Shown here in pieces: positions 663 through 64,000 of a DNA stretch of 64,000 nt. The position numbers and the translations under genes are program-made. The first letter of the stretch is position 1; each line of letters opens with the position of its first letter. The DNA comes from Pseudogymnoascus verrucosus (Eukaryota). The notes beneath the pieces are model-generated. The model was not told the DNA's origin. It did no database searches and was given only the letters and a program-made list of their open reading frames with translations. The DNA is taken from the NCBI GenBank assembly GCA_001662655.1, contig KV460218.1; one strand, given 5' to 3'.

Positions 663-2776
663 GCCTTCTCCCACTCTCCCTTTCCCTCCTCCCCTCACCC
701 ACTCACCCAACTCGCGCACTCACCGAACTCGCGCACTCACCCAACTCACCCCTCCATCTTACGCACAGTACCAAAAAAACGACCTATCTCACACCCCCTC
801 ACCTCCCTCGCCACAATGTCATGACACCTGTCTCACCAACCTCATCTGATCTTAGCCATGTCTCAGACCGCCCTTACTCGCCAAAGTACGCCTCACTTCC
901 ATACATACCTACTTCCATACATCCATACATACACACTTCCACCCACCTACATACACTACCACCCGCCCCGTCCGCTTCGGGAAGAGGACCAAGACCTTCA
1001 AGGAGAGACGAAGCCTCGGCGTAGACCAAGAAGAAGCGTGTATCCCGCCCCTATAACCTCTCTAGGCATACGTGCGTCGCTCGATATGGTGTTAGACTAC
1101 GAAAGGGCGGCACGATGGGCTGGATTGGGGGTGATGGCGGGATAGGTGGTCGATCCCATCCGCGGCGGCGGCGGTGGTGGTGGTGGATGCGGTGGATTGG
1201 GGGGGTCCGCTCGCTGCTGGTGCTGGTGCTACTGCTGTATCCCTGAGAGGCGTAGAATGGGGTTGTACTTCTGGCGCGGCGCTGTTGTGCTTCCGTAGCT
1301 GCCGGTGTTGATGCTACTGACGCCTACTAACACTGTATTACCATACCAACACCACTGATGCTGCTTGCTACCATTACCAACAACGCACAGAGACCCTTCC
1401 TTCCTTCCCCACGGATCCCGTTCCCGCATCGCTTACACCAGACGACCACCACGTACCACCAACCAACCGTCCTCCCAACCCACGAATGCATGCAAGAAGC
1501 CACCCACCACCCACACCCACCCAGCCAGACAACCAGATCGGGACCGCGGATAAGTAGTTGTTGCATACGCCCGCCGCGCTATGGACTCGTTAGCGCCAGG
1601 GGGGGAGATGCATAACTCCTCCCGTGTGGATGCACTATTTTAGTGTTGCTTTTTTTTGCGGGAGGAGAGAGAAGAGAAGAAGGTGAGAAGTGATGGATTG
1701 GCGGGTATGGGGGGTTGGAGTCCGCGGAGGAGGGATGGGGGGGAGGGGGGTTATGCGGTATGATGGGGGTTATGTGATATGGGGGATAGGTTACGTGGAC
1801 TGGACTGGATTGGTGATACTATGACGGTGCGTGCGTGCTGGAATGGATGGAATGGATGGGCGGCTGTAACGGGGGTGTAACTTCTGTCATTAAAGGGCGG
1901 GTTGGTGATGTTACGAGTTTGTTATATGTAGTATTTAGTTTAGTTGTTGGTGGTAGGTAGGTAAAGGGCGTATGTAGACCACGGTATCTTTAGAGAAAAT
2001 CAATAGCTAAATACGCTCAACTAGTGATTACGAATACATGCGTCTACCCGTCCGTCTGCTCCTGTAGCATAAACAAAAAAGCCCACCTGGTGGTGCTTAC
2101 TGCTTCCTGCTGGGACAGAGCAGAAGGGGGACAACAGTGTCTGTTATACCATCTAGGTAGACGGTATGTACATTTAGCAAAACTCTGGTAGGCGAAAGGA
2201 GCGAATCCTGACTAAGAATACATGTGGATACCCGCCGGATGATGACATGCTCCGCGCAAAGCACACCTGGTGCTGGGACGACAGAGAGGGATAGGGAGGG
2301 ACAGCAGGGTGTCTGTTGTGCTTTTTGCTTGGTTTCTTGGTTGCTTGGTTGCTTGGTTGCTACTAAACGGTGGTCTAGTGGGGAGTAGAGGCTGGGTACG
2401 TATGTATCTTTAGAGTGATTTGTGTGGATGGATGGGGGGAGGAGTGATTAGGGGTACATGTGTGTACCCGGGTTGGTTTTTTGTGATATGGAGACAGATG
2501 GACAGCATACATATCGCATCGGCTGGGTGTATGTCACAGTTGGGACGGTATAGAGGGACAGGTAGAGGTACATCTCGGTTGTCAGAGGGGTGTGTTTACT
2601 AGAGAGAGTAGAGTTAGATTTGTAGGGAGTTGTAGGCAATTAGTAGGGAATTAGAGGTTTTGTCTGTCTCCATCTACAGTCAATTCCCTTAATGCACACT
2701 TATGCATGTACTGGTACTTCTCCCACTCTAACCTACAGGGTTGCTTCCTCCCATTTTCTTACTTCCTCCCATTTTC

Positions 2777-2880
2777 TACTACTACACTACTAGCTACTAC
2801 TATACTACTACCAGCTACTATACTCCTACTACTACTATACTACTGGCTAGCACTACTACTAATTCCTAGCTACTATACTA
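2777..2880. repeat. Degenerate (CTA/TAC)n microsatellite
   Basis: ctactacactactagctactactatactacta... visible directly. Confidence 0.7.
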
Positions 2881-3235
2881 ATTAATTCCCAGGACAGGCA
2901 CAGGCACAATCACAAGCACAGGGCAATAAATAACACAATCTGAATAATAATCTTAGCTCCATTCATATCCAATCCATATCCATCCCTCCTTCGCCCACTC
3001 CCACTCCCACCACACATCCAACCCCCTGCCCCCCTACACCCACCCCCCTGTCACCCCTTCCACCCCTGCCATCCCCCTTCCCACTGCACTCCACATCCAC
3101 ACCCTTCACACCCCTTCCCGCCCGTGTCACACCCATCTTTCTTATCCTGCCCTCCCCTTCTTTTTCGTGACTGACATTGTCTGAGAGCCAATTTTACCTA
3201 TCCCCAAACACCCATATCCAGAACATTTTCACTTT

Positions 3236-3258
3236 ACACACACACACACACACACACA
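3236..3258. repeat. (AC)n microsatellite
   Basis: Run of ACACAC... upstream of the kinesin gene. Confidence 0.85.
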
Positions 3259-3633
3259 AAAGTCTTGCAATCATACAAGCAAAAACAAACACATCGATTC
3301 CATATCGCCACGACTGCAAACGAAACAAAAGATCCATTATAGAAACCTCAGGGGAAAACAGAACAGATAAACACACGCGCAGTACACACGTCCCTTTTAT
3401 TTTAATTTAGCGAACGCGTCGACGACAACCACCCCCTTCTTCCGACACCACCACCCCAGATAATAATACCCCCGAACCCCGAATTTCTCTCACGACATCA
3501 AAACCCTCATACCATACCCAAGCGAATCCGCGCACCCTATGCCGTCGACCTAACGACCACGACCTCTCGGAGACGAGCAACCAGATTACCAAAAATAATA
3601 CCACATACACCACCGCGCGTTTTGTTCGCCGCG

Positions 3634-6600
3634 ATGGCTACCTCTCCGCCGGGGTCGCCGGATGTGCCTGCGCAACGGCCGATGAGCGTGTTGGTGCGCC
3701 CGTCGACGAGGAGTACGAGCCGGTTGAGCATGACGGGGAAGCTTGGGGGACAAGGGGCAGGAGGGAGTAGAGCGTCGGATGAGGATGGGAAGACGAGTGT
3801 GAGAGTTGGTGAGTCGCCTACATCCCAGGGGATTTTATAATTGCAGTGGGACTGTCGTGTGGGATTATTATTATTGTTTGGAACGGGAATTGGGAGTCTA
3901 CGTATGCTAACAGATTCCAGCTATCCGCGTCAGGCCGCCGCTCCGACCAGAGGACCCAGGATACGAACTTGTGCCGCAACGATTCCAGCGATCAATGGTG
4001 CAAGTCACCTCCCCAACAAGCGTTACAATCGACTCCCCCCAAGGCCGCAAGCTCTTCGTCTTCGACCGCGTCTTCGGCGAGGACGTCAACCAAGAAGGCG
4101 TCTGGGAATACCTCACCGAGAGCGTCAACGCCTTCGTCCAGGGCTACAACGTCTCCATGCTCGCCTACGGCCAGTCAGGAGCTGGGAAATCATACACCAT
4201 GGGAACATCCGGCCCCGACGACCAGGGCGACATGGATGTCATGGGTGAGTCGACAGGTGCTATTCTCTCACACCCTATTTTCATGGCGCAAGTCGACCCC
4301 GCTGGCCTTACATGCTGACACGTACCCTAGGTGTGATCCCACGCGCTGCCGCTGCGCTGTTTGAGAAACTCGAAGGCCCGAAACCAGCGAGCAACCGCGA
4401 CTCCATGTCCGCCCTGCGCGCGCCGAAGAGGTATTCCGCGCAACCCGGCGCGTATGCCGGGAAGCCCGCCGAGAAGAACTGGACGCTGAAGGCGACGTAT
4501 GTCGAGATTTATAATGAGCAGCTGCGCGATCTGCTGGTGCCGGAGCATGTGCCCATGGCGGAGCGGGGACAGGTCTCGATTCGCGAGGATACGAAGGGGC
4601 ATATTTTGCTGACGGGACTGCATGCCGTGGATGTTAATTCGGTGGAGGATCTGCTTAATGCGTTGAATTTCGGGTCCATGATTAGGCAGACGGATTCTAC
4701 GGCCATAAACGCTAAGTCGTCTCGCTCGCATGCGGTTTTCAGTTTGAATCTCGTGCAGCGCAAGAGTAGCACTGGTGGCCCGACGCCGAAGTCTGAGAAG
4801 CGATTCTCGGTCCCGCTTGAGGCTATGACTGGATCGGAGAGCTGGGTTACAATTGATAGCAAGTTCCACTTCGTCGATCTGGCTGGTAGCGAACGTCTCA
4901 AGAATACTGGTGCGCAGGGCGAGCGAGCTAAGGAGGGAATCTCCATCAACGCCGGACTCGCCAGTTTAGGCAAAGTCATCTCGCAACTCTCCTCCCGCCA
5001 AGCAGGATCGCACGTCTCATATCGTGATTCGAAGCTCACGCGCATGCTCCAGGACTCGCTGGGAGGCAACGCAATCACCTACATGGTTGCCTGCGTTACG
5101 CCAGCCGAGTTCCATCTCAGCGAGACCCTCAACACAGTCCAGTACGCCCAGCGCGCCCGCGCTATCCAGAGCAAACCCCGCATCCAGCAGGTCTCAGACG
5201 AGACAGACAAGCAAGCCCTCATCGACCGCCTCAAGGCTGAGGTCGCCTTCCTGCGCGAGCAAATCCGCAGCTCAGACCGTAACGACAACCCTGCATCACA
5301 TGGAGGAACTACAAGCGCACGCTCTGATCGCCGTAATGACGCGGAGATTGATCTCCAGAACCAGCTCTTGGATAGCCAGGAGAGCTACAATGCGCTTAGC
5401 TCGCGCCACGCCAAGCTCATCTCTGAGATGACCAAGGCGCGCGATACGGAGATAGCGGAGAATGCGACGAAGGAGGAGAACCTTGGCGATCGCGCGACGG
5501 AGAGGCTGCAGCGCTCGAATGCGTTTGCGGAGGCTGTTGAGCAGGTTGTGCTGGAGTACGAGGAGACGATCCGTAGCCTTGAGCAATCGCTGTCTAGCAC
5601 GCGCGCGTCGCTGTCGAATACGGAGACTACTCTTCTCGAGCGCGAGACTAAGTGCGCGTACATCGAGACGGTGAACTCGCAGCTCCAAGCCCGCCTACAA
5701 AAGCTTATGGACCGCGAGGCGAGCACGGAGAATTACCTCCATGATCTCGAGATTAAGCTTGATGGCCACACGAGCGGAGAGGAGAAGAACTCGGCCATCG
5801 TGGCTGAGCTGAGGAAGGAGATCGCGAGGGTTAGGGAGAATGAGGCCAGCTGCGAGGATTACATCTCTACTCTCGAAGAGCGTCTCGCTGAGTCCGACTC
5901 CGATGCCGAGGTCATGCGCCGCGAGATCGAGCGTCTCGAGCACGTCGTCGAGCGCCAACGCAGCTTAGGCAAACTCGACAAACTCCTGTACGAACTCGAT
6001 AGCGTGCGTCAAGGTGAGGCCACCGCCGAGACACCCGCCCCCGCCACCACCAACGGCAAGATCCCGCATTCCCGCAACATGAGCTACGCTAGCAGACACG
6101 GCCAATCCGAGGTCATCCACGAGCGCGACGAGATTGAAGGCTCTGAACCCCGCTCTCTCGACGATGAAGAGGAGGAGGAGGAGGAGGGACGCCGCACCCC
6201 CAATGACGTCCCAGCACTCAGCCCAGATGGCAGCACGCACTCTGAAACCGACGGCCCCGTCGACAACGGCGAGCCCCTCGACGCGGACGAGGCATCCACC
6301 CCCTCCGACACACGCGCGCGCACCCCCACTTTAAGCCGCAAACCCACCATCGACGTCGTGACAGCCGAGCTTCTCGACCTCCGCATGACTCACGAGTCCA
6401 CAGTGAGCGAATACGAGAACCTAGCAGCTAAATACGAAGAAGCGCTCCGCGCGCTCGCCGAGCTCCAAGACGTCGTCGAGGAGGGTCGCCAGCCATACGG
6501 GAACGCGAAGAGGGATAGCATGTTATCTGCCGCGACGCCGGCGCAGACGCGCCCGACTTCTTTTTTAGCCGTTGGAGATTCCGCGGGAGAGGCGCAGTCG

Positions 6601-37767: not shown

Positions 37768-40036
37768 CTATCTCCGCCTTGACGACCGCGTGCTAGCAAC
37801 CGGCTCGAAAGCATCATCATCATCGCTAATCTCATCATCACTCAACTCTGCCTTTGCCTTCCCCTTTCCCCTCCCACCAACCTGGCTTCCCATTTGGCTG
37901 AAATTCAGCTGTGACTGCGTCGAGGGTTTAGCTCTCGTCGAAGCAGCCCTCTTTGGTTGACTTTTCGGAACTGGCGCCTCGTCGAGCATTACTATATCTT
38001 CATCGTCATCATCGTCAACGAACATCCCTGTGTTGACCTTCGACTTCGCAGGTGCCTTCTTCGGCGCAGGCGTCTTCTTTGGCGCTGCAGGTTTACGAGC
38101 AGCAGGCGCGGCGCGCTTAGCTGGGGCTCGCTTTGCGGGAGCAGGCGCAGGGGCTGGGGTATTAAATGGATCATCGTCATCCTCCACAATTGGGCTCGCG
38201 ACCCTTCCTCTCCGCCTCGCCGCTGCAGCTGGGGCAGGCGCAGGGGTATCGTCCTCATCATCCTTCTCCCAGGCGCCAGGCTGGTCCTCCCACTCGCCGT
38301 CCATATCCGAATCCCAGTTGACCGGCCTCGGCTTGAGTTTCCTGGATGAGCGGCCGCGACGCGCAAGCGTCCCTTCGTGGAACTGCTTGTCAATCTGGGC
38401 AGCGTAGCGTGCCATAGCGGAGTCAAGGTCTTCTTCGTCGTCTTCGAGGGAGAGCAGTGTCTGCACCTGCCCCTCGAGAGACTGATCCACAAAGACTTGC
38501 ATGGCATGCTTATCGTCCTTGTCCACGAACTGGCTGACGGCATCGCCGAAAGGCGCCTGAGGAAGGATCTTGAGGCTCTGCGCGTTGAGAAACTCTCGAA
38601 CGAGCTTGCTGACCTTGACATTATCGATGGACAGATTGGCTATGACGGACTCCTCAGGCATGTCGGCCGCGCCATCCTTCTTGCTGTTCGCGCCACCTCT
38701 GCTCTTGCGCCGCCAGAACTGGATAACATCATTTACGTTGGCAACCTTGCCAACAAAACGGTTGGAAAAGCGCTGTGGGTTTTCGCAATCGTAACGTCCG
38801 CCCTCGGGGGCCGTGTATTCGACTTTGAGGCGCACGAGAGGAAGGGGAACCTCGATTGGCTCGTCGCTGTCCGCGTCTTGGATTTCCAGCCAGTCACGTT
38901 TTGCCTCTTCAATTAGGTCTTCGACAACCTCCATCAGTCGCCGCGTGAGCTCCTGCTTATTTTCCTTCTTCTTGTCCAGGCCTTTGAAACGCCTGTCATC
39001 AGCGAGAACGATCTCTTTCGTAATGAACGGCCGTACTGTTTTGATACGGTGCTTTTCGACGGTAAATTCTCGGCCAGTTACGTTCAAGATTGCCACATGT
39101 TTTGGTACAGCTTCTCCTGGAACCAGGGACGTAGCAACTGACGAACCGGGCTGCATGACATGGAATGAGGTTTCAGGGTTATACTTTGGATCAATGAGGC
39201 ACTCGTGCTCATGTCCCCAAACGACCAGGTCCATAAATTCGGGCAAGAAGTTTTCCGGCAGATATCCCGTCTCGCTGTGAGCATGGTGGTTTTGGTGGAC
39301 GGCCATGATGTTAAACCAATCATCCTGTTGCACTCCAGGCTTAAAGAACGTCACTTTCCCGTCCCTGAAAGTTCTGAACAGCCGCTCATCTCTGACATTG
39401 CTCATGCCATATAATGCCAGTTTTGTTTGTCCTTTTTGCAGTAGAACCGGTTTTATAGCAATATTATCCGACTCCGGCGTCCTCCCAAAGTAGTTCAGAA
39501 GCCCTGAGACTTGCAGAAGATCGAGCGAGCAAAAGTGTCCATCTCCGGACGGATCATCGTGGTTTCCATGTATAGAAAAGACTGGTATGGCGACATTGAT
39601 ATCGGGATCTTCGTAGTTGACGTGGTTAAATGCCCCATCAAAGACTTCGTTTGCATCGCTCAGCATCTCGAGCTCACATGGTTTATCGCCCAGGCAGGTC
39701 ATCCGAAGAGAGCGCATGACTTGGTACATAGCCTTTCTGGAGGGCTTGTTATCGTGGAAAAGATCGCCCGCCAGGAGAACCATGTCGACCTGCACTTATC
39801 AGCTTATGACTCTCTGTGACCGAAGGTGGTGCCAACATCTTGTGTCTTCGCAAGGGTCAGAACTTCATGGAAGCTCTTCCAGCTGTCGTCCTTGCGGATC
39901 GGATCTCTTTCCTCGTAGCCAACATGGCTGTCTGTTGCAACTAGGATTCGTATAGTATCGGCGTCTGCCATGATGTTAGGTTTGTTCACTGGAATCTACG
40001 GAGCAAAGGAGGAGTATTACCTCCAAGTTCAGACAT
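37768..40036 (-). CDS. MRE11: Double-strand break repair nuclease Mre11
   Basis: Exon 1 40036-40021, exon 2 from 39964, second intron near 39.79-39.84 kb. Motifs [43 protein letters not shown]. Confidence 0.97.
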
Positions 40037-46957: not shown

Positions 46958-49575
46958 ATGGAATCGCGTCGGGTCATTGCCGACTCAGACGATGATTGCT
47001 CGTCAATAAGTGCCGAGAGTTCCCCTCAAAAAGACAGGCCAGTCGCCCCAGTCGCCATCCCCAATGGCACTATAACAGAAGCCACCCCACCATCAGTTTT
47101 GGAGCCAGCGCTACGGCTAGGAACAGGCTCGACAGGTTTGCCTCCAATACCCCGTGGTACCAGTACGCAGTGCCGCTGACAATCTATACAGATTCTGTAC
47201 TCTTTGAACGAATCCGCAGTGATTATTGCGGTGCTCTTGACATCACATCTACAAACGAGTCGGCACCACAACTCTCCCCACGTCCGCCAGGGCTGGACGA
47301 ACGGATCATAAACCAGAGAATGTCTTCTTCAATATCCCAAGAAAGCGTCAAAAAACTCAAACGGAGCAATACGATGCATGGCTCATCGTTTACCTCTATT
47401 TCGGAGCCGACTACCTCCAATAAGAAGGCAAAGCGCTCGAAAAGTATGAAGGCATGGGAAGGGACGACACAGGTTACAAGCCCCGACCAATCCAAAGAGC
47501 TTCGACATGAGAACAGAGGCGGAGAAGAAAGAGAAAGAGATGAGTGGGACTTCCCAGGCAGCAGTGCTCCGGGTACTTCAGCTGCAATTCTGAGGAATAC
47601 GCGGCTTGAGAAAACAATGGCTGAAAGAACAGACGAGTTGGAGCTCCTGGGGAGCATTCCCTCCGCTAGGCCCTCGGAAATAAATGATATGGGCACAGAG
47701 TCCGGGGGTAGTGGGTTAATAACTTATGGAAAGTCGAGGAGGACGAAGACAATGGGCGACCAAGTGCCGAGTTCGTCGCCATACGTGGAGCCACGACGAA
47801 GAACAAAGGATGACAGCGAAACGGTCATCGAAAACAAAAAGAGGAAAACTAGGCAAGGGGTTGAAGGAGAACTATTTCCCATGCTACCAAAACCTAAGCG
47901 GAATAAACGAGCCCAGCCTGCCAACGACGAGTCTCTCTACAATGCGAGCGTCGCCGTAGTTGAGGAGCCACAGCTTCCACGGCTTAGCGCCTTGCCAACG
48001 TCCTTATCACAATATGTTTCAAATGAAGTCGGCATCAGTGAAGGCTCCACCGAGCAAGTCTCAATCGTGAAAGCAACAAATTTCGACAAGGTGGGTTCAG
48101 ATCTCATGGCACACAAAACGCCAACAGAAACTGTTCCAAACAGCCCTCGGGATACTTCACAGGATGTCTTTATCATCCCAGACAATAATCCTGGACATGA
48201 GTCTTCCGAGTTACCTTCATTTGATAGAGGACTTACCACGATGGTTATGGCAAATATGTTAACAAGCAGCCAAAATAAGGAGTACATGCACTATGGTGCG
48301 GCCTCAAGCGATAACAATCACATCTACTCATTGCCGGATATGATGGAACCAGCCAGAGCATTAAAACTCACAGATGCATCCAGCACCGTTCCAAACGATA
48401 CTCCTCGTCCAGACCGTTCGGCCGTTTCTTCCGCTATAGACTCAACAGGAGTAACCTTTCCACTTTCATCATCTCCTGTCGTCAATTCGGGTCGAAAGGT
48501 CAAGAGGTCAAAGACTGGGCTTTCATCCTCGGCAAGTAAGCCGAATCAGCAGAAACTATCTCGTCACAAGTCTATGGGCTATTCCGATAGGGAAGTTTCT
48601 GTCGATGAACTCGCGCTTTCGCAGCCGCGACACCAAATTTCGCCCATTCGTGCCGCTCATACCGTGTCGATTGAGTCTCTGAATGACCAGGAAATTAAAA
48701 CTGTTGACATTACGACCTCCGTCAATCCGCCCTCAAAGCAGAAAGCGAACGATGCAGATCTTCAAAGCTCGCAGGATTTTGGCCAGGTAACGGAAATGTA
48801 CCAACCGCGTCTCAGTGCCAGGAGATCGAAGACCTTGAGCGCCAAAGCAGACATTATTGCAAATGAAGAGTTTGCCAAGGGGCTGCCTATGAAGAGAAAG
48901 AGGAGGAAAATTACTAAGACGAAGGAGATCGTGGATGAGCCTTCGGCTGATGAGATCGGCCCTTCGGACGAATCAGCACAGACCCAGGCGGAGGAAGCTG
49001 AAAGACCAGAAAAGAGGAGCAAAGCAGCACATGCCCTCCCCGATACGCCCAAGTCTGCAGCAGAGTCACCCGATGAAGTTATTGAGGTTGAAAAGGTTGT
49101 GTCCCATAAGCGCCGGGGACGACATTCAAAGACTCCTGTGGAGAAATCGGCGCCAATAATCGAAGATTCAGACATGGACGACGATGAGATTGAAGCCACT
49201 CAAAAGCCTGTGGGCAAGACAGCACAGAAAGCCCAATCTAAATCGAAGGAAATTGAAGCCACTCAAAAGCCTGCGGGTAAAAAAGCACAGAAATCTAAAT
49301 CTAAATCGACGGAAATAGCAGGGAGCGATGAGGAAGAAGATGAAGATTCTGGTGATGCCGACACGGACCATGCACCAAGTCGCAACCGTCCCACGAAACC
49401 CACTATTCTTGCGCCGCCCCAGTCAACTCCACCGCCGAAACCAACGAAGGAGATGCAGACACCGAGCAAGCCATGCACTCCGCATAGTCCTCTGCAGAGT
49501 GGGAAGGTGCCGTATAGGGTTGGACTGAGTAAGAGGAATCGCATTGCGCCGTTGCTGAAGATTATCAGGAAGTGA
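46958..49575 (+). CDS. Low-complexity basic nuclear protein, resembling fungal AT-hook-domain hypothetical proteins
   Basis: Intron 47136-47191. N-terminal RRVIADSDDD, YQPRLSARRS, degenerate AT-hook KRRGRH, C-terminal HSPLQSGKVPYRVGLSKRNRIAPLLKIIRK. Confidence 0.75.
49185..49316 (+). repeat. 63-bp coding tandem repeat (two copies)
   Basis: EIEATQKPVGKTAQKAQSKSK / EIEATQKPAGKKAQKSKSKST. Confidence 0.85.
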
Positions 49576-50061: not shown

Positions 50062-51921
50062 CTACAATAACGCGAGCATCTCTTCCATCCTCAAAATTGA
50101 ATCGTCAAGATCTCGGCCTACCTCTACCGCCTTCACCTTAACACCGTCGAAGTCCTTAATCTCGAAAGTCTTATTCCGCTGCTCCATTTCCGTTTCCAAC
50201 CGGACTAACAAATGGTGTAGCTCACGGGTTTTTTCAATCGCAGTTTCTGTCTTTCGTCTTGCATTGATCCTAGCCTTTCTGAGAGGCTCATTTTTGTTGT
50301 CGACTTGGGTGTTACGTTTCGTAGTTGAGTCTGAGTCTGTAGAACTGCATGTGTCACTATCACTTTCTGGGGTGATATTCCCGCAGCCTACGCATTTTCC
50401 CATCTTGTAAAGCTGGTCATCCTTTTGTAATTTGGCTTCATCAGGCTCCTCGTGAGGCATCTTTTGTTCTTTAGATCGGGTTGGTTGCTCTCCGTCTGGT
50501 TGGCTATACCTTTTATCGTGCTCTTTTTGTGCCTCGCGAAATAGGCACACAAGATCTATGTTCGAAAGCCTCATAAACTCCGACTTAGGGATCTTTTGAT
50601 AAGGCATGATCCGTGCTATGCGAAGCAGCTCTGTTTGGTCTAATTGGGAAAGCTCTTCAATAGGCATACTAAGAGGTACGCATTGTGAAAGTTCGATGGG
50701 TGGTACAGGAAGCCTCATGAAAGATTCTCTCCGTGCTATATCGAGCAACTTCTCAAGGTTGGGTGGCTCGTAGGGCTTGAAAACATCGTCTCGTGCTATA
50801 TCAACAATTTCTACGAGGTCCGACTTTTTAAGTTTCTCGAGGTTCTCGTCTGTCTCGCACCTCGCTTGGTACACGAGATTTATATTAAGACGTACCTTGT
50901 CCTTTAAGGCGCGTGTATCAAGGAAGCTCTCCTTCGTATCGTATATTCCAGACTTCTCGGTTTTAGTATGCTGGTCCATCGTTCCCTTCTTAGTTTTGGC
51001 TCCCCCCTCAACGAAGTTTGTCGTCGTTGTTTCCACCTGCCCTTCAACTTTATCAAGCCAATCATCAGACTCGAGTTCTATCTTGCCAGGCATCTCCTTG
51101 AGTCCCTTTAACTCGAGTTCTGTCTTAGAAGTCTGAGAAGGCAGCTTATGAAACGTATCTTCAGGCTTGCAAACTTGATCGTCCTCTTGTAGTTTAGCCT
51201 CGTGCACGTTATTAGCCTTCTCTCTTTCCACATGACGTGAGACTTGATCCCTAGAATCGGCTACCTTATACTTCTTCAAGTCCTCCTTTCGTGCCTCGCG
51301 AAGTAGGTCCACGAGATCCGAGTTGGGAACCTTCACAAACACTGATTTAGGGATCCTATAGAAAGGAGTGGCTCGTGCTACGCGAAGCAACTCCATAAGG
51401 CCCAGTTTGGAAAGTTTCTCAAAGGGCATATTCTGTGCCTTAACAGACGGGGTAGTAAAGGATTTACCCCGTACTATGTCGAGTTCCTCCGCGAGACTTG
51501 GCCTCGGGGGCTCCAAAGCCTCTTCTCGTACTATGTCAAGAAGCTCTATAAGGTCTGACTTCATAAGTTTCTCTAGAGACTCGTTTGATGCGGAGCTAAG
51601 TCGATTTTTGGCACCTCTGTACAATCGTCGGCTTTCTTTCTTCTCAGCTTCGGTCTCGGAGTTCCACTTCTCAATTATGTCAACCTCCCACTTTTCGGCC
51701 TCAGTCCTTTCGTCAACCTCCCACGTCTCGGCCTCGGTCCTTTGATCGGCCTTCGACTTCTCTACGTTACTAGGAGACTGGTCCATAGTCCCATAGGCAT
51801 TCTCTTGATTCTGGATTTCTGAGTATCTGGGTAGTTGCTCGTCATCTGTATAAGGTTGCTCTAGAAGCGCTGCTGTCTCCTCTTGGCGTCTAAAGTACGC
51901 TCTCCAGTTGCGTTTTGCCAT
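50062..51921 (-). CDS. Orphan charged helical protein with internal duplication and C-terminal GKCxxC domain (paralog A)
   Basis: Intronless ORF, 619 aa from ATG 51921; no recognised family. Confidence 0.75.
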   Translation of the reverse strand: MAKRNWRAYFRRQEETAALLEQPYTDDEQLPRYSEIQNQENAYGTMDQSPSNVEKSKADQRTEAETWEVDERTEAEKWEVDIIEKWNSETEAEKKESRRLYRGAKNRLSSASNESLEKLMKSDLIELLDIVREEALEPPRPSLAEELDIVRGKSFTTPSVKAQNMPFEKLSKLGLMELLRVARATPFYRIPKSVFVKVPNSDLVDLLREARKEDLKKYKVADSRDQVSRHVEREKANNVHEAKLQEDDQVCKPEDTFHKLPSQTSKTELELKGLKEMPGKIELESDDWLDKVEGQVETTTTNFVEGGAKTKKGTMDQHTKTEKSGIYDTKESFLDTRALKDKVRLNINLVYQARCETDENLEKLKKSDLVEIVDIARDDVFKPYEPPNLEKLLDIARRESFMRLPVPPIELSQCVPLSMPIEELSQLDQTELLRIARIMPYQKIPKSEFMRLSNIDLVCLFREAQKEHDKRYSQPDGEQPTRSKEQKMPHEEPDEAKLQKDDQLYKMGKCVGCGNITPESDSDTCSSTDSDSTTKRNTQVDNKNEPLRKARINARRKTETAIEKTRELHHLLVRLETEMEQRNKTFEIKDFDGVKVKAVEVGRDLDDSILRMEEMLALL

Positions 51922-52006
51922 GTTTATAACAGAGTAATTAAGCAAAAACTGCTACTAAGGTGATAATTATTGTGTCTTGTATTTTTGTAAAGGCTGTGGC
52001 TGGTTG

Positions 52007-52260
52007 TGTAGTTTTAGATGCAGGGCAAGGGAAGTGGTGGGAGAGGGGATGAATATATAGGAAACGGCACTAATGAGAATCTAACCTACTCGTACGATGG
52101 ACATCTCTAGCCATGGAGCTACTGGTTCGTCCGCAAATTACTAAAATGGGCTTCGACATAGTGGAAGGCCAGTCACCTCCATCCTGTCCACGGTTTCCTT
52201 CCGCTCAGCGTCCCGGCTAAGAAGCTAATTCTAGAACGTAGTACTCGTGCGGCCCTAAAG
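52007..52260 (-). promoter_or_regulatory. Duplicated upstream module, copy A
   Basis: Colinear similarity blocks to 53474-53770; TATA-like TATATA near 52054. Confidence 0.75.
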
Positions 52261-52394
52261 CCTTAATAGTTACTGTACATAATTAGAGTAATAAGAGTAA
52301 ATGCAATTAAAATAATATAAATAGCTAGTAACAAGTTGTTCATCCTTACATACACGAAAAGCCCTCTTTATTCGCCTGCCCGTCGCTCATCCTC

Positions 52395-53432
52395 CTACCT
52401 TTCTACTAAATGATCAAGTGCTGCACCTATATAATCTGTGAACTCTGTGAGGCCTTGAAAGCCTTTAACCCCTAGAGTGTTATTTCGTTCGACATTACCG
52501 TCTAACGTTAACATCAAGCTATACAGCCCATAAGATCTGTCAACCACAACGCCTATTTCTTGCCTCGCTTTATCCCTAAGCTGCTGTAAATTCTCATATA
52601 CTTCCTCATCCTGGCCAATCTCGGCTGTATTCATCACCTTGTAGAGAGCAGCTGTTAAGTAACTACCTCCTGTTGTTATAGATCTATCTCCTATGCGGAT
52701 ACCACTGCAATTCGCGCACTTCCCTTCTAACGAGGCTGCCTTTATAGCTGCAGTCTGGTCCATGGCTTTTCGAAGTCGCTCGTCGTATCGTTGTTTACTT
52801 TGGTAAATCTTCCTTTCGGTTTTATCCCAGAGATTATCGCTCATTGCCTTATAATTCTCGGCAGCTTCAAGTTTCGACTCGCGGAGGTCATCTTGTATTT
52901 TATGTGCCCCATCTAGTTGCTGAAGAGCACTGTCCCGGTCCCTATAATCCTCATCCCGTTGCTTGCGAGCATCATCTCGGTCCTTGCAAGCATCATCGCA
53001 ATTCTTCGAATACTGATCTCGTTGCTTAAGAGCATCATCTCTTTCCTTGAGAAGCTCCTCTAATTGCCGCTTGTTCTCTTGTCCCACAATACGCAGCTCT
53101 GACCGTTCCAGTTCAGGGCGCCCGTTAATAAACTCACGCAGTGCGCTGTGGAGTTTCTCTCGGGGGCTAGTGTTCGGAACTGCCTTTGAAGGCTCACTAT
53201 GCTTAAGCTTCGACGCTGTCGCTTCAGACTCTCGCTCACCATTATCGGTCTTCGAGTTCCTAACATCAGAATTCGGATTCTGAGTTTCTGAATTCCCAAA
53301 GCACGCCTTCCAGCTGTGCTTCACCACATACCAGACGAGGTGCGAAAGAATTCCTGCTAAAGTGATAATAACTGCGTCTCTAGTGCCATTGTCCATAGAC
53401 AGTACCGTAAAAGCTGCGTATAATTCAACCAT
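52395..53432 (-). CDS. Orphan protein with N-terminal hydrophobic helix, heptad repeats and C-terminal GKCxxC domain (paralog B)
   Basis: Intronless 345-aa ORF; TM-like AVIITLAGILSHLVWYVV; 7-aa repeats. Confidence 0.75.
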   Translation of the reverse strand: MVELYAAFTVLSMDNGTRDAVIITLAGILSHLVWYVVKHSWKACFGNSETQNPNSDVRNSKTDNGERESEATASKLKHSEPSKAVPNTSPREKLHSALREFINGRPELERSELRIVGQENKRQLEELLKERDDALKQRDQYSKNCDDACKDRDDARKQRDEDYRDRDSALQQLDGAHKIQDDLRESKLEAAENYKAMSDNLWDKTERKIYQSKQRYDERLRKAMDQTAAIKAASLEGKCANCSGIRIGDRSITTGGSYLTAALYKVMNTAEIGQDEEVYENLQQLRDKARQEIGVVVDRSYGLYSLMLTLDGNVERNNTLGVKGFQGLTEFTDYIGAALDHLVER

Positions 53433-53473
53433 CTTGCCTGTCGTCTGTCTTCTTAATTTCAGTGACTCTTAGT

Positions 53474-53770
53474 TGTAGTTTTAGATGGCAGATAATAAAA
53501 ATGGTGTGTGGAAGACCGAAGCATATATGGGAGCATACATGGGACATGAGACAGTAGGATGATAATTCCACCTAATCGTACCTTTTTGGCACTTACCTCT
53601 CTGGCTAGGAGCTAAATGCTTCGTCTGGTTAACTAAAATAGGCTTTATATAGTGAAAGGCTAATCATCTCCGTCCCTCACTAACGAAGCTAGTTACTGAC
53701 ATCAGCCCATCTTATAATTCGTTAGTAGCACCTACCTTGGTAACATTTCACTACTCGTCCTGCCTAAAAG
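53474..53770 (-). promoter_or_regulatory. Duplicated upstream module, copy B
   Basis: Colinear similarity blocks to 52007-52260. Confidence 0.75.
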
Positions 53771-54234: not shown

Positions 54235-55434
54235 CTACTCACCCCCATACTCCTCATCATCGTCCTCCTCCACCCCCACAACCGCCAACTCCGTCTCAAC
54301 CAACGCCCTAAACTCCGCCCTCCCCATCCCCGCCGCCCGTGCCAGACGATACAAACTCTTCACACTAGCCCCGATATGCTGCCTCACAGCAGTATCATGT
54401 CTCCCCTCTCTCTCCACCTTATCCTCTAACACCTCCACCGCCGCAGACCGTCCACTCGTACTCGATTCCGCCGAGCGCGGCCGCGGCTGCTCAAGCTGCG
54501 CGTCTCTCTCTCTCCCTGCCCGTTCTACTTCCGTAATACCATTCCCGTTCCCGTTGCTATGCACCGCAGGACTCACAAACTCCCGCTCATGCTGTGCACC
54601 AAGACTCGATTCCACTTCCCCATTTGCGCCCGCCTCGTCGGGATCATGTGCGTCCAGCGCGGGCTGCACATCAGCGTACTGTGCGAAGTATGCGTCCTCG
54701 GCTCCACCGTCAACTTGGGTATTCCCACTCACGGGTGCCTGGCGCACGCTCGCAGGCGCAGGAGATCTGTTATCCGGCCCTGGTGTCGCAGCGGGCGTAG
54801 CGTCATATTGAGCCCAATACGCCGCATCATCATCTTCATCGCCATCATCCTGTACCGGCTCCGCAACCGTAGGAATCACCACCGCCGCATCCCCATTCGT
54901 CTTCCCTGCCTTAAACGCCTGTTCTGCCGCCTCTAGGCTTTCAAACCACTCACCCTCACTCTCCCCCTCATTTTTCAGCACCCCCACCTCCCCAATCCTC
55001 CACCCATCCACCGGCCCCTCACTATCCCCAACACAATACACACACCTAACCCACAACCCGACCCCCCCAATCTCAATCCTCGCCCACATCGTCTCCGCAT
55101 CCACCCTCCTATACCTAACCCCCACCTCCCTCCCATCCTCCCAATCAACATCGACCTCCACCTCCCCGCTCACAGGGTGCGGCTCGAACTTCTCCCCATG
55201 CGCGAGCGCAATCAACTTCTCCCCCGTGTCGTCGCTGGCGTAAGTGAGGAGGGGGAGCCAGGGGGTGGTGGGCGAGGCGAGGAGCTTGACGCGTTGCCGG
55301 AGGATGGGGGAGAGGTGCGGGAGGAGAGGGGAGGGGGCGTGGGGGAGGGAGCCGGTGGGGAGGGCGGTGAGGAGGGGTTGGAGGAGGGTGGGGGGAGAGG
55401 GGGGGGAGAGGGGGAGGGGGATTGCTGATGGCAT
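54235..55434 (-). CDS. Conserved-looking fungal hypothetical protein
   Basis: 399-aa ORF with LSPILRQRVKLL, EPHPVSGEVE, YWAQYD, YFAQYADVQPALD, HIGASVKSLYRLAR. Confidence 0.8.
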   Translation of the reverse strand: MPSAIPLPLSPPSPPTLLQPLLTALPTGSLPHAPSPLLPHLSPILRQRVKLLASPTTPWLPLLTYASDDTGEKLIALAHGEKFEPHPVSGEVEVDVDWEDGREVGVRYRRVDAETMWARIEIGGVGLWVRCVYCVGDSEGPVDGWRIGEVGVLKNEGESEGEWFESLEAAEQAFKAGKTNGDAAVVIPTVAEPVQDDGDEDDDAAYWAQYDATPAATPGPDNRSPAPASVRQAPVSGNTQVDGGAEDAYFAQYADVQPALDAHDPDEAGANGEVESSLGAQHEREFVSPAVHSNGNGNGITEVERAGRERDAQLEQPRPRSAESSTSGRSAAVEVLEDKVEREGRHDTAVRQHIGASVKSLYRLARAAGMGRAEFRALVETELAVVGVEEDDDEEYGGE

Positions 55435-56171: not shown

Positions 56172-57857
56172 TTATACCCGATCCTCAACCCTCACAGGCT
56201 CCCTCATCGGTTCAACCCCCTCCTCATCCTCATCCCCATCCCTCACCCCACCATCCCCATAATCCGCCTCACTCCTCTCCCCCACCTCCTCCTTCGCCCC
56301 CCTATCCCCCATCTCCCACCCGTCCACCTTATCCTTCACCTCCCTCCTCCTCTGCCTCCTCTGCCTCCTCGAACAAAAAACCATCACCGCAACCCCTAAC
56401 AAAACCACAAACCCCGCCGCCCCCAGCCCAAGCCCCAGCTCCAAAGCCGTCGTTCCCTTCTTCTTCTTCTTCCCCCCTCCCCCATCTCCACCCCCATTCT
56501 TCCCATTCTTCCCCTTCCCCTCCTCCTTCCTCCCCCTCTCCAACCCCTCCAAAAACGTAGGACAGAAGACTTGGCCCCCCCCACAAACCTCACACCACTC
56601 CCCGACCCCCTTCCCCACCTCCCGCATCTCCTTCTCAAACTCCTCAAACTGCATATCCCCCTTCCCCCTCCCCCTCCCAAAAAGCGGGTACCCCACCAAC
56701 CTCGCCCCCTCCGCCGTGCCATTGCGGTACAAAAACCTAACCCACAGATCTTCCTTCCCCGGTCTCCCAGCCTCAGGGTCAGTGTGGGAGAAGACTTCGA
56801 AGACCATCATACTCCCCGGCTCCACGACGCCTTTGAAGCGCGCATCGTGGTCTGCGAGCCCGGAGATAGCTGAGAACCCCACGAACGGGGCGGACGAACT
56901 AAACAACAAATTCAGCTCCCCCGGCCTCTCCGACGTCGTCGCGCGACTCAAAAGATAAAGAACGCGCTCCGCAAACGTCCGCCCAGCAATAGGTTTCAAA
57001 ACCCCATCCTCCTCGCTATCCCCCCCACTACCCCTCCTAACCCCATGAACACCCCACCCCCTCATCCCCGCCAGCGCCCTCAACCTCGCCAGCGCAGCCG
57101 CAGGCAACGTCGCAGCAACAGAGGAATTATGCAGCGTCGCATACGCGGCATACTCATACAGTTGCGGCGCATTATGGTAACTAACCATCATCTCCGGTAC
57201 CACCCCCGCAAACACCCCCGGGACCAAGGACTTGAAAAACCCCTCGCTGGTCTGGGTGGTGTTGATGTACTCGCTGCTGTTGATTTGGGCTGCGGTGCTG
57301 AGGGCGTGTAAACCGCACCGATCAGACCCAGCAACCCAGATGTGATTCCAATCCCCACCCCCCGCCGTCTCGACGCGGCCATACTGATACCCCCCCAACG
57401 GCGCCAGCCACCCTCCACCCCCCGCTTTGGGACTCCCGCCCACTGCGGCCGGCGCGTCGACGGGGGGATACAAGCCCTGCAGAAACGCCCACGCGCTCGC
57501 GACGACTGGTTGTTCTGGCGCAGAAAGGACATGGACGCGTTGGTTATCGATGTAATTTCTGTGAAACCCGTGTAAAGGGACAAAAGAGGTATTGTGCGCC
57601 GAAGGACCAGTGAGGTAGCGACGCCGCATTAGGGAGCCGGAGGAGTGGGCTTGTAGGGCGCCGAGGGGGTTGAGGGAGGGGTTGGTGGGGTGGGTGAGGA
57701 GGGGGCGCCGCTCGCCGTGGTGGGCGAGGATTAGGGAGGTCCAGGCTGTGAGGGGCCGGTTGGGGGGGAATTGGGATTGTGGCGGTGAGTGCTGGGAGAG
57801 GGTGGTAGAGAGGAGGAGGAGGAGGATGCAGAGGAGGTGGGTTATGTAGGATGCCAT
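56172..57857 (-). CDS. Histidine phosphatase superfamily-like type I membrane protein, degenerate active site
   Basis: Signal peptide from ATG 57857; HHGERRP, LNPLGALQAHSSGSLMRRRY, SAWAFLQGLYPP, GSMMVFE, WVRFLYRNGT, WCEVC; C-terminal TM helix followed by RRQRRQRR. Confidence 0.85.
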   Translation of the reverse strand: MASYITHLLCILLLLLSTTLSQHSPPQSQFPPNRPLTAWTSLILAHHGERRPLLTHPTNPSLNPLGALQAHSSGSLMRRRYLTGPSAHNTSFVPLHGFHRNYIDNQRVHVLSAPEQPVVASAWAFLQGLYPPVDAPAAVGGSPKAGGGGWLAPLGGYQYGRVETAGGGDWNHIWVAGSDRCGLHALSTAAQINSSEYINTTQTSEGFFKSLVPGVFAGVVPEMMVSYHNAPQLYEYAAYATLHNSSVAATLPAAALARLRALAGMRGWGVHGVRRGSGGDSEEDGVLKPIAGRTFAERVLYLLSRATTSERPGELNLLFSSSAPFVGFSAISGLADHDARFKGVVEPGSMMVFEVFSHTDPEAGRPGKEDLWVRFLYRNGTAEGARLVGYPLFGRGRGKGDMQFEEFEKEMREVGKGVGEWCEVCGGGQVFCPTFLEGLERGRKEEGKGKNGKNGGGDGGGGKKKKKGTTALELGLGLGAAGFVVLLGVAVMVFCSRRQRRQRRREVKDKVDGWEMGDRGAKEEVGERSEADYGDGGVRDGDEDEEGVEPMREPVRVEDRV

Positions 57858-58801: not shown

Positions 58802-60421
58802 TTAACCGAAAAGCGCATCCCCAAGACGAATCGACACCGTCTTCGTCTGGGTGTAGTTCGCCAACGCCGCCTCACCAAGCTCACGTCCCATACCCGACTC
58901 CTTGTACCCTCCAAACGGCGCCTGGTGGTGAATCATGTTGTACGAGTTGACCCACACGGTACCCGCACGGATAGAGTTCGCCACGCGCAGCGCAGTGTTG
59001 AGGTTGGTAGTGTGCACCGCAGACGCAAGACCGTAGTTGGAGCCGTTGCTCTTGGCAATAGCCTCCTCCTCAGTCTTGAACTTGGAGATAGTGCAGACAG
59101 GGCCAAAGATCTCCTCCTGGACAATCTTCATGTCCTCAGTGACATCCGAGAAGATGGTAGGCTGGATGAAGTATCCGACATCGCCGTGGCGACCACCACC
59201 AGTGGTGACGGTAGCGCCAGCCTTCTTGCCCTCATCAATGTATCCCATGATACGGTCGAACTGGAGCTGCGAGACCTGGGGTCCCTGGAAGGTCTCCGGG
59301 TGGAATGGGTCACCGACCTTGTTCGCCTCTGCGCGCTCCTTGAAGCGAGCGATGAACTTGTCGTAGATGCCCTCCTGGACGTAGATGCGGGATCCGGCGC
59401 AGCAGCACTGGCCGTGATTGAAGAAGATGCCAAAGTTGACCCAAGAGATGGCGTTGTCGATGTCGGCGTCGTCGAAGACGATGTTGGGGGACTTGCCTCC
59501 AAGCTCGAGGGTGACCTTCTTGAGGTTGGAGTCCGCGGCGGCCTTGAGGATCATGCGGCCGACGATGGTGGAGCCGGTGAAGGCGACCTTGTCGACGTCC
59601 ATGTGCGAGGAGAGGGCGGCGCCGGCGGTCTTGCCGAAACCGGAGATGATGTTGATGACTCCGGGAGGGAAGCCAGCCTCCTTGATCAGCTTGGCGGCGA
59701 ACAGGGCGGAGAGAGGGGTCTGCTCGGCGGTCTTGAGGACGACGGTGTTACCGGTGGCGATGGCTGGGCCGATCTTCCACGACCACATGAGGATTGGGAA
59801 GTTCCATGGGATGATTTGTCCACAGACACCGATCTGGTTGGTGTTAGTATGTTGGAGGAGAGGGAACAGAGTTGCTCGGGACTACTTACAGCCTCCTGGC
59901 GTGTGTATGTGAAGGTATCTGTGTTGGTGTCGATGGTCTTGCCCTCGATCTTGTCGGACCAGCCGCCGTAGTACCTCAAGCAGCCGACCGCAGCGGCGAC
60001 ATCACCCTTGGCCATGGAGATGGCCTTTCCGTTGTCGAGCGACTCGATGGCAGCCAGCTGGTCGAGGTTCGCCTCCATCAGCTCGGACAGCTTGACGAGC
60101 AGCTTGCCACGGGCCTCGGGTGTGACCTTGCTCCACTCGCCATTGAATGCTGCCCTGGCGGCGGCAACGGCGACGTCGACATCCTTCTCGGTGGCCTCGG
60201 CGACGGAGCAGATGACCTTCTCGGTGGCGGGGTTGATGACCTCGAAGGACTTCTTGTCTACGCCCTCGATGAACTCATTGTTGATGAAGCTGTGAAGAGG
60301 GGGTTAGTTAGTTGACTGTTTGTGGTGTTTCGGGAGGGACGGAGGGGGGGGAGTAAACGTACAGTCCAGTTGGCTGTTGGTACTTGCCGTTGGACGGGGT
60401 CTCAAGCTCGATGGTAGCCAT
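58802..60421 (-). CDS. aldA: Aldehyde dehydrogenase (AldA-like)
   Basis: Exons 60421-60363, 60289-59890, 59833-58802. Motifs [51 protein letters not shown]. Confidence 0.96.
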
Positions 60422-62746: not shown

Positions 62747-64000
62747 ATGGAATCAATCACCGCCACCATGCCTATCGAACGTGAGTTCTCACCCGCGCAT
62801 TCCCATCCATCACCACCATGCCTCCACGCGACTCCCCCGTCCACCCCCTTCAACCACCACCCCCCTCGCCTTGCCCATCTTCTAACCACCAGTAACTAAC
62901 CACCCCTTCCCTCGCAGAACCCCAGATCAAATACGAATCCCCCTACAGCGCCGACCCTCCCCCGTACGACCCACACCAGCACTCCCCCCTCAAACGCCGC
63001 TTCTCCCCCTCAACACCCCACGCCCCAGCCTCAGATGAAAAGCGCCAGCGCATTGAGGTTTCTCCCCCGGCGCTGGGTGGGGATGACATGGATTTCGCGG
63101 CTATGATCGCTGCTGCCGCTGCTACGGCTTCGGAAGAGGCTGGGCCCGCGCCGCCGCAACAGCAACACCAGATGCAGCAGCACCAGCAACATAGTTTTGC
63201 GCCGCAGGAACCGTTGCCGTCAGTGGAAGGGTACCAGGCAGGGCAGGAGTTTGGGGGAAGCAGGGAGGCGGCGGCGGAGATCAGTAATGGGTTTTCAGCG
63301 GATCCGCATCTGTATATGCGAATCTTGAGTTTACCTATCCTGGAGAGCTTGTCTACGCAGATCCTCTCCACGCTGGCGCAGGGCCCGTACTCGGAGACGA
63401 TCAAGATCGTGACGCAGCCCGAGTCGGAGCTGGGACAGGCGTACGCGACGCTGAAATCGCTGTTTGACCAGACCAAGAAGATTTACTCGCAGCAGAAACC
63501 GTTCCTCTCGGCTGATGAGCTGAATATCCGCGAGCCGGAGCACCGCGGGACGATACGGACGACGAATCTGGCGACGTTTGTGTCGTCGGTGGTGGGGGGG
63601 CAGGATGTGGGGTTCTATGAGTTGAATGATCATTTTATTGAGACGTTTGTGGCGGATGGGGCGGAGTTGCAGACGGAGCCGGGACTGTTGTATTTGAATC
63701 TTAAGACGCAGATGTATCTCTCTGCGGTGTCGCAGGAGGAGCAGGAGAGGACGAAGGATGAGGTCTTGGATGATCTGTTTCCTGTTAGTCTTGGGGATAC
63801 GCTGAGGGCGAGGCATCCGGGGTCAGATCTTACGCAGAGTGAGATTGAATTTGTTAAGGAGGCGAATGCGAGGAGGGAGTATCTACAGAATGATTCTGGT
63901 GATCCGGATTCTATATGTAAGTCAACCCTCACCACCGCACGAAGCACTTTCTAATTTTATAGCTATCCTCTCGGAACAATACGCCTGGGAGGATTTCCTC
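62747..64000 (+). CDS. TBF1: Telomere-repeat-binding factor (Tbf1/TRF-domain) protein, 5' part, continues beyond the window
   Basis: Exon 1 62747-62780, exon 2 from 62918 in frame with ORF 63088, next intron near 63918-63962. MRILSLPILESLSTQIL, GQAYATLKSLFDQTKKIY, IRTTNLATF, VGFYELNDHF, LYLNLKTQ match the fungal TRF domain; Myb domain not visible. Confidence 0.8.

Follow-up and report, generated by a model that had tools for sequence, protein, structure and literature searches.

The 64,000-nucleotide (nt) stretch of Pseudogymnoascus verrucosus DNA analysed here (contig KV460218.1 of assembly GCA_001662655.1, hereafter the window) carries two uninterrupted open reading frames (ORFs), A and B, which lie in tandem on the minus strand, where a sequence-only reading of the same DNA had placed them. 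Gene B is located upstream of gene A at a spacing of 473 nt, and the encoded proteins of 619 and 345 amino acids (aa) are recorded as P0001 (A) and P0002 (B), respectively; no further copy of A or B was found in the window by tblastn. It can be held with high confidence that A and B are diverged paralogs with the anatomy described below and listed in Table 1, and the family to which they belong is, as far as the present searches reach, restricted to the genus Pseudogymnoascus.

Anatomy of the two proteins

Protein A begins with about 70 residues that are modelled by AlphaFold2 (AF2) with low confidence, and within them lies the tetrapeptide LPRY, an instance of the [LP]PxY (PY) motif. All 16 A-family proteins with a complete N-terminus have this motif, against 0 of 9 B-family proteins, and the four A-family sequences without it are N-terminally truncated. 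Its position in a putatively accessible region of low predicted local distance difference test (pLDDT) values is what would be expected, in sequence terms, of a PY ligand of Rsp5/NEDD4. Behind the motif there is a 33-nt tandem repeat, of which an extra copy exists in P0003/P0004 and in run X2, the sequence of a relative diverged by about 6%, and then the helical module 1 (pLDDT 66–84).

Most A-type proteins possess one such helical module and a length of about 400 aa, whereas A of the window and its full-length orthologues (619, 630 and 560 aa) possess two. Module 1 shares 64–85% identity with the module of relatives that have just one, for example P0006 and P0009, and module 2 shares 62–63% with the single module of P0014 and P0027 but 46% with module 1 of A itself. 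In addition, residues 1–314 of A align with residues 1–303 of P0009, and residues 275–613 with residues 28–415 of P0014. These identities and alignments identify A as two units fused in frame, one of type 1, whose C-terminal region has been lost, and one of type 2, whose first ~65 residues have been lost. In another family member, P0010, the order of the modules is reversed.

Protein B carries a hydrophobic segment close to its N-terminus, predicted to be a membrane anchor, and the corresponding score lies between 1.42 and 2.22 in eight of the nine B-family proteins, compared with a maximum of 1.28 among 20 A-family proteins. From the charges that flank the segment, the bulk of B is predicted to face the cytosol. 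The middle of the protein is occupied by a long charged helix, built in part of repeated heptads, whose length differs among species, as seen both from indels in the orthologue alignment and from 42 additional nt in run X2. The earlier statement that the two proteins contain different repeat modules therefore holds, since A has two ~120-aa modules and the 33-nt repeat (two copies), and B has the 21-nt heptad repeat (3.1 copies).

Table 1. Features of genes A and B and of the surrounding window (window positions)
Feature	Position	Strand	Basis or remark
Gene A, 619 aa	50062..51921	-	two units fused in frame: type 1 (residues 1 to ~306) and type 2 (~307-619)
LPRY, a [LP]PxY (PY) motif, residues 30-33	51823..51834	-	same place in 16/20 A-family sequences
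33-nt x2 tandem repeat encoding 'RTEAE(K/T)WEVD'	51679..51743	-	Tandem Repeats Finder (TRF); copy number differs among relatives
Helical module 1, residues 100-218, four 'L..LL..AR'-type helices	51268..51624	-	best-conserved part of the A family
Approximate junction of the fused units, '...NFVEG|GAKTKKGTMDQH...'	50990..51006	-	alignments to P0009 and P0014
Helical module 2, residues 345-472	50506..50889	-	DNA repeats and module comparison
A region common with B: GKCVGCG, Ser/Thr/Asp-rich linker, predicted two-helix hairpin (residues 545-618)	50065..50400	-	BLASTP, shuffles, hhalign, AF2
A promoter block homologous to that of B	51973..52184	-	promoter alignment and shuffles
Gene B, 345 aa	52395..53432	-	orthologues at 44-63% identity
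Hydrophobic segment, residues 19-37, DAVIITLAGILSHLVWYVV, predicted membrane anchor	53322..53378	-	Kyte-Doolittle mean 1.82; AF2 helix 15-45
Long charged helix with 'RDxAxKx' heptads, residues 107-237	52722..53114	-	AF2 single helix, pLDDT mostly 70-87
21-nt x3.1 heptad repeat within the B helix	52933-52997	-	TRF
B region common with A: GKCANCS, linker, predicted helices	52398..52724	-	BLASTP, shuffles, hhalign; AF2 pLDDT <50
B promoter block homologous to that of A, with CACTATATAAAGCC and CATCTAAAACTAC	53439..53675	-	promoter alignment and shuffles
Mre11 ORF piece	37771-39783	-	Pfam
Histidine phosphatase	56175-57857		Pfam scan of neighbours
Aldehyde dehydrogenase ORF piece	58805-59788	-	Pfam
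TRF-domain protein ORF piece	63088-63951	+	Pfam

The shared region, the promoters and the origin of the pair

The sequence-only reading had matched the C-termini of A and B by eye, and this likeness is confirmed by alignment statistics. From the GKC motifs (residue 508 of A, nt 50400; residue 237 of B, nt 52724) to the ends of the proteins, BLASTP finds 29 identities in 110 positions and 45% positives with an E value of 5e-6. The Smith–Waterman score of 83 was reached by none of 2000 shuffles of the B C-terminus (25.4±4.2, maximum 52), and when the GKCxxC part was removed, the local score of 73 was again above all 2000 shuffles (23.0±4.3). Both proteins fit the family pattern 'G-K/R-C-x-x-C ... 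E.L.Q.R ... LY.L ... N.T.G..DF..L ... LD.L..R' of a C-terminal alignment of 16 sequences, and in a search of longer proteins with the C-terminal profile, all 12 matches belonged to the A or B family, P0001 and P0002 included.

Two properties that had been ascribed to this region fared less well. Its CxxC had been proposed as a Zn site, but the Cys ligands are poorly kept, occurring together in no more than 6 of the 13 A-type proteins holding the site (5 of 6 in the B type), and there is one CxxC per chain only. It had also been called the constant domain of the family; within the A family, however, 22 of the 27 invariant columns fall within helical module 1, and five are found from residue 521 onward, that is, in the C-terminal region.

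As for the fold, the predicted hairpin of A consists of helices 545–586 and 592–618 (pLDDT 56–68). In a structure-wide alignment the matches of A were confined to residues 539–619 and consisted of generic helical hairpins, such as the designed heterodimer 6dmp (Z 10.1, root-mean-square deviation (rmsd) 1.1 over 71 residues), the hairpin of CHMP4B (Z 9.9) and also Snf7, all of these Z scores being below ~13, the level that the aligner calls common for helical models. A prediction of the A–B hairpin complex, which was run without alignments, returned a score of 0.05 and a mark of 0.34 and counts neither for nor against pairing.

The kinship extends beyond the C-termini. When the A-family profile (13 sequences) was compared with the B-family profile (9 sequences), hhalign gave a probability of 98.9 and an E value of 1.1e-17 over 275 columns, the match starting at residue 98 of A and residue 84 of B and running to the C-termini. 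Furthermore, B orthologues keep one 'LSKPDLLELLNVARD' ('DLxELLxxAR') helix like those in the module of A (36–48% identity over 27–55 residues, E 1e-3 to 2e-6), and this helix type is decayed in the B of the window. The N-terminal parts, which had been described as unrelated, are thus related in part.

The noncoding DNA is also duplicated, as the sequence-only reading had claimed. Over the ~210–240 nt that precede the two ATGs, 151 of 241 aligned columns are identical, and the alignment score of 37 was equalled by none of 500 shuffles (11.4±1.4). When 105 segments of the window were compared with the A promoter, only the segment upstream of B exceeded a score of 22 (37), overlaps with A's own upstream region aside. 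The blocks in common are GCCTT(C/T)CACTAT, AAGCC(C/T)ATTTTAGT, GTACGA(G/T)TAGGT and CATCTAAAACTAC. Since the promoters are homologous, the duplication took the whole gene unit, and the conservation of the blocks suggests that A and B are co-regulated. As far as sequence comparison can show, then, a tandem duplication carried the promoter along with the coding region, and it predates the separation of the sampled species.

Searches for known domains and folds gave the following picture. Pfam searches with A, B and the isolated modules produced sub-threshold matches only (modules at E up to 5), and one of these, TraI_middle (E 0.0015, 19.1 bits against a cutoff of 27.6), was rejected as a chance match. 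Sequence profiles of the PDB contained nothing specific (best E 0.086, 0.35 and 0.1), Foldseek gave no match in the PDB at E <=0.001, and the ESM Atlas gave no usable match, the Atlas model of P0009 having a predicted template modelling (pTM) score of 0.22. No metagenome locus was found for the A-family alignment. Two metagenome loci (L001 and L002) match the RD-heptad region of B alone at 30% identity, and they were set aside as low-complexity look-alikes. L002 contains at 2770-3711 (+), on a high-GC contig, an ORF of 313 aa with 'ERDxARKERD' heptads like those of B and lacks the shared C-terminal region; its heptads are probably a convergent low-complexity helix.

Distribution and variation within the genus

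The search with A gave 13 non-self matches, 11 of them named Pseudogymnoascus and 2 without name, and the search with B gave 8, of which 5 were named Pseudogymnoascus and 3 had no name. All named relatives, in other words, come from Pseudogymnoascus (Leotiomycetes), in agreement with the earlier suggestion of a lineage-specific family, and all are annotated as 'hypothetical protein'. Orthologues of A are known from 11 or more named species or strains of the genus.

A profile search was also made with the A alignment; since most of its rows count as fragments, 422 N-terminal columns of P0008, which belong to PigL_N, were retained in the profile. Among its 150 matches listed, 140 were PigL_N proteins and 10 fell on the A part (P0003, P0010, P0013, P0015, P0024, P0025, P0027, P0031, P0048 and P0061). 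Because of the PigL_N columns, relatives scoring under ~94 bits may be hidden, and absence outside the genus is not established by that search. P0008 itself (V500_00796 of strain VKM F-4518) is PigL_N over residues 1–422 (PF17111, E 1.5e-69), while the start Met of its A part is at about residue 433, and it probably represents two adjacent genes merged in annotation. Its PigL_N part has hundreds of relatives, the profile search having returned 635 matches at E <=0.001; no PigL_N gene was found in the window.

The arrangement of the pair is retained in related genomes. In run X2, a contig of 4562 nt covers A and B collinearly with 230 substitutions, and relative to the window it has 69 additional nt at the 33-nt repeat of A and 42 in the heptads of B; its repeat indels (69, 42 and 3 nt) are all in frame. 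In run X3 the A/B locus is covered in pieces that are 95–99% identical. In strain VKM F-4518, the A-type gene V500_00796 and the B-type gene V500_00798 are found on one contig of 37,056 nt, so the tandem arrangement is probably kept there as well. A second contig of run X2 (2029 nt) matches window positions 51526-51676 (module 1 of A) and 53610-53746 (the B promoter) at ~80%, with 555 letters between the two matches, and this level of identity points to a further family member elsewhere in that genome. Taken together, three or more lineages of old standing can be distinguished in the family (A type 1, A type 2 and B), and they fuse and vary.

In P. destructans, the A orthologue P0006 (VC83_08666) is 351 aa long, lacks ~55 residues between module 1 and the CxxC, and has Ser in place of the second Cys. 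According to the expression table in File S1 of PMC12113139, VC83_08666 is transcribed in 21 of 21 culture samples at 3.7–11.8 normalised counts, within a table range of 0 to ~5000. No paper on this gene was found by a text search of the literature, and it does not appear in the supplement text of PMC5810475 and PMC13208438, which possibly present the data in part or for selected genes. Run X1, labelled transcriptomic and flagged 'probably DNA', contains two 151-nt contigs at >=99% identity on the 5′ half of A, and these were not used as evidence of expression.

The genes around the pair are ordinary core or housekeeping genes (Table 1). The Pfam matches of the Mre11, aldehyde dehydrogenase and TRF-domain ORFs start inside the profiles (e.g., Aldedh positions 142-461), which indicates introns or further exons upstream in these genes. 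Directly beside the pair lie two long ORFs at 47320-49575 (+, 751 aa) and 54235-55434 (-, 399 aa), both rich in Ser/Lys/Glu or Pro/Ala/Gly, for which no Pfam family was found at E up to 5.

Possible functions and comparison with known systems

After the duplication, B kept or gained its hydrophobic N-terminal anchor and expanded the charged heptad helix, and A kept the [LP]PxY motif and the four-helix 'DLxELLxxAR' modules and was assembled in this lineage from two single-module units. Both copies retain the C-terminal region, at whose end an antiparallel two-helix hairpin is predicted. In the explanation that we favour, these hairpins may pair as four-helix bundles to form homo- or hetero-oligomers. 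B, held in a membrane by its anchor, would in that case serve on the cytosolic side as a spacer-like scaffold and recruit soluble A, whose PY motif could dock the WW domains of a Rsp5/NEDD4-type ubiquitin ligase; it is reported that both PPxY and LPxY are recognised by WW domains of the Nedd4 family (PMC8509885, PMC2824488). Expression of the two genes would be coordinated through the conserved promoter blocks. This account of two diverged paralogs in a Pseudogymnoascus-only family, taken whole with its mechanism, is put forward tentatively. The particular proposal that scaffold B and adaptor A meet through the hairpin, with the binding, the location and the link to Rsp5 that it implies, is possible but somewhat doubtful.

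Several observations weigh against it. The mean pLDDT is low overall for both models (51.5 for A and 54.5 for B), and the C-terminal shared region of B is predicted to be helical at a pLDDT below 50. The PY motif comprises just four residues, and its conservation could have another cause. In run X2, 28 non-synonymous and 10 synonymous differences over codons 391–613 of A give a ratio of non-synonymous to synonymous change (pN/pS) of ~0.74, a rough value since it comes from the 38 differences in A among 40 of 284 displayed, and it indicates weak constraint. Expression is low in VC83_08666, the sole orthologue with such data. Finally, B orthologues are known from fewer named species than A orthologues (5 against 11) and none comes from P. 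destructans, which suggests that A can probably do without B, provided that B has not simply been missed by the annotation of that species.

Much of this would equally suit two fast-evolving orphan paralogs that share ancestry and have lost any joint work, with the hairpin serving self-association or no specific role and each gene having a minor, dispensable function. Identity as low as 26% in the shared region, the differing N-terminal features, the narrower occurrence of B-type genes, the weak constraint and the low expression of the P. destructans orthologue all fit such an outcome. On the other side, the ~210–240 nt promoter is still 63% identical although the proteins are far more diverged, which suggests shared regulation, and the tandem order is kept in the ~6% diverged relative and probably in VKM F-4518. 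This explanation is a serious contender of tentative standing, and that A and B no longer interact is about as likely as the scaffold and adaptor model. Were the same weak constraint and low read counts, together with the truncated or internally deleted orthologue models P0005, P0006, P0021 and P0022, taken as signs of near-neutral genes with little or no function drifting to loss, one would have to reconcile this with ORFs of 619 and 345 codons that are intact here and in many species whose proteins are just 40–75% identical, with a PY motif and module columns invariant across that divergence, and with repeat indels that stay in frame in run X2; such drift is unlikely.

The sequence-only reading had raised a poison–antidote or self/non-self pair, i.e., a spore killer or allorecognition system in which the shared domain neutralises or recognises the partner. 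Tandem paralogs that are lineage-restricted, fast-evolving and variable in repeat number are compatible with it, as is the PigL_N domain ahead of one A orthologue, with SesA as a sub-threshold match (E 0.034); PigL_N belongs to a domain class that is also found at the N-termini of fungal STAND proteins. Against this, Pfam gives neither protein a toxin, nuclease, kinase, HET, NACHT, HeLo or multi-pass membrane domain, and no HET, NACHT/STAND, HeLo or patatin-type domain was found in A, B and four orthologues at E up to 1, PigL_N occurring only upstream in P0008. The locus is flanked by Mre11, aldehyde dehydrogenase, histidine phosphatase and TRF-domain genes instead of a variable region, A orthologues are widespread in the genus and not sporadic, the window is without a PigL_N gene, and no presence/absence polymorphism was seen in two related runs, which are not a population sample. 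The locus is also collinear in the ~6% diverged relative. Beyond the general traits just named, no result favours a conflict pair, and we consider it very unlikely. A nuclear-envelope or chromatin tether, in which the A helices would be SAP/HeH/LEM-like nucleic-acid-binding motifs and B an anchor in the endoplasmic reticulum (ER) or nuclear membrane, draws on the 'L..L.K.DL.ELL..AR ... P.SDLVDLLREA' helices of A, which resemble SAP/HeH in motif pattern only, and on the modules being the parts of A with the strongest conservation and the most confident models. No SAP, HeH, LEM or Rho_N match was obtained in Pfam at E up to 5, even with the modules alone (the HMMER filters drop weak matches), nor was there any Atlas match. 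We regard the tether as improbable.

A bolder version of the favoured scaffold and adaptor model would be a genus-specific two-part device, in which membrane-anchored B, with its ruler-like helix, captures through the shared hairpin the soluble A, which brings Rsp5 to a particular membrane, or in which the hetero-oligomer is a recognition or neutralisation pair in genetic conflict. The chance of this is small; if it were true, one fungal genus would have given rise to a new oligomerisation domain and diversified it. Regardless of function, the locus offers a clean and datable case of how a lineage-specific family is built, with joint duplication of promoter and gene, divergence to the edge of detection, repeat expansion and in-frame fusion, and the many public genomes of the genus allow these steps to be traced. 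Since the agent of white-nose disease in bats belongs to the genus and transcribes its A orthologue, genus-specific proteins are of some interest; nothing here ties the family to virulence or genetic conflict.

Among known systems, the fungal poison–antidote drivers include wtf of Schizosaccharomyces, Spok of Podospora and rfk-1/rsk of Neurospora. The wtf products are multi-pass membrane proteins made from one gene with alternative starts, nuclease and kinase domains are found in Spok proteins, and meiotic drivers of this type are polymorphic between strains. A and B resemble them in being lineage-specific, rapidly evolving tandem paralogs (drivers are sometimes in tandem), and differ in having at most one hydrophobic segment (in B only), no enzymatic domain and the same gene context in related genomes. 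With the PY-motif adaptors and substrates of Rsp5/NEDD4, such as Bsd2, Ear1/Ssh4, Sna3 and the arrestin-related proteins, A has in common an [LP]PxY that is conserved and lies in a disordered part near the N-terminus, but it shows no sequence similarity to them and has no arrestin or SPRY domain. Residues 546–619 of A superpose on antiparallel hairpin oligomerisation units, i.e., designed heterodimers (6dmp/6dkm), the ESCRT-III hairpin of CHMP4B/Snf7 (4abm/5fd9) and prefoldin, with Z 9–10 and rmsd 1.1–1.9 over 70–76 residues; sequence identity is 5–16%, and this is a common arrangement and no evidence of family membership. Orphan gene families that expand by tandem duplication offer a further parallel: A and B likewise occur in one genus, are annotated as hypothetical, are mostly helical or disordered, diverge fast, and underwent later fusion and repeat expansion. 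They depart from the usual orphan family in that the duplicated promoter can still be recognised and the N-termini contrast, with a PY motif in A and a hydrophobic anchor in B; the family is new and, as far as searched, genus-restricted, and its general kind is familiar.

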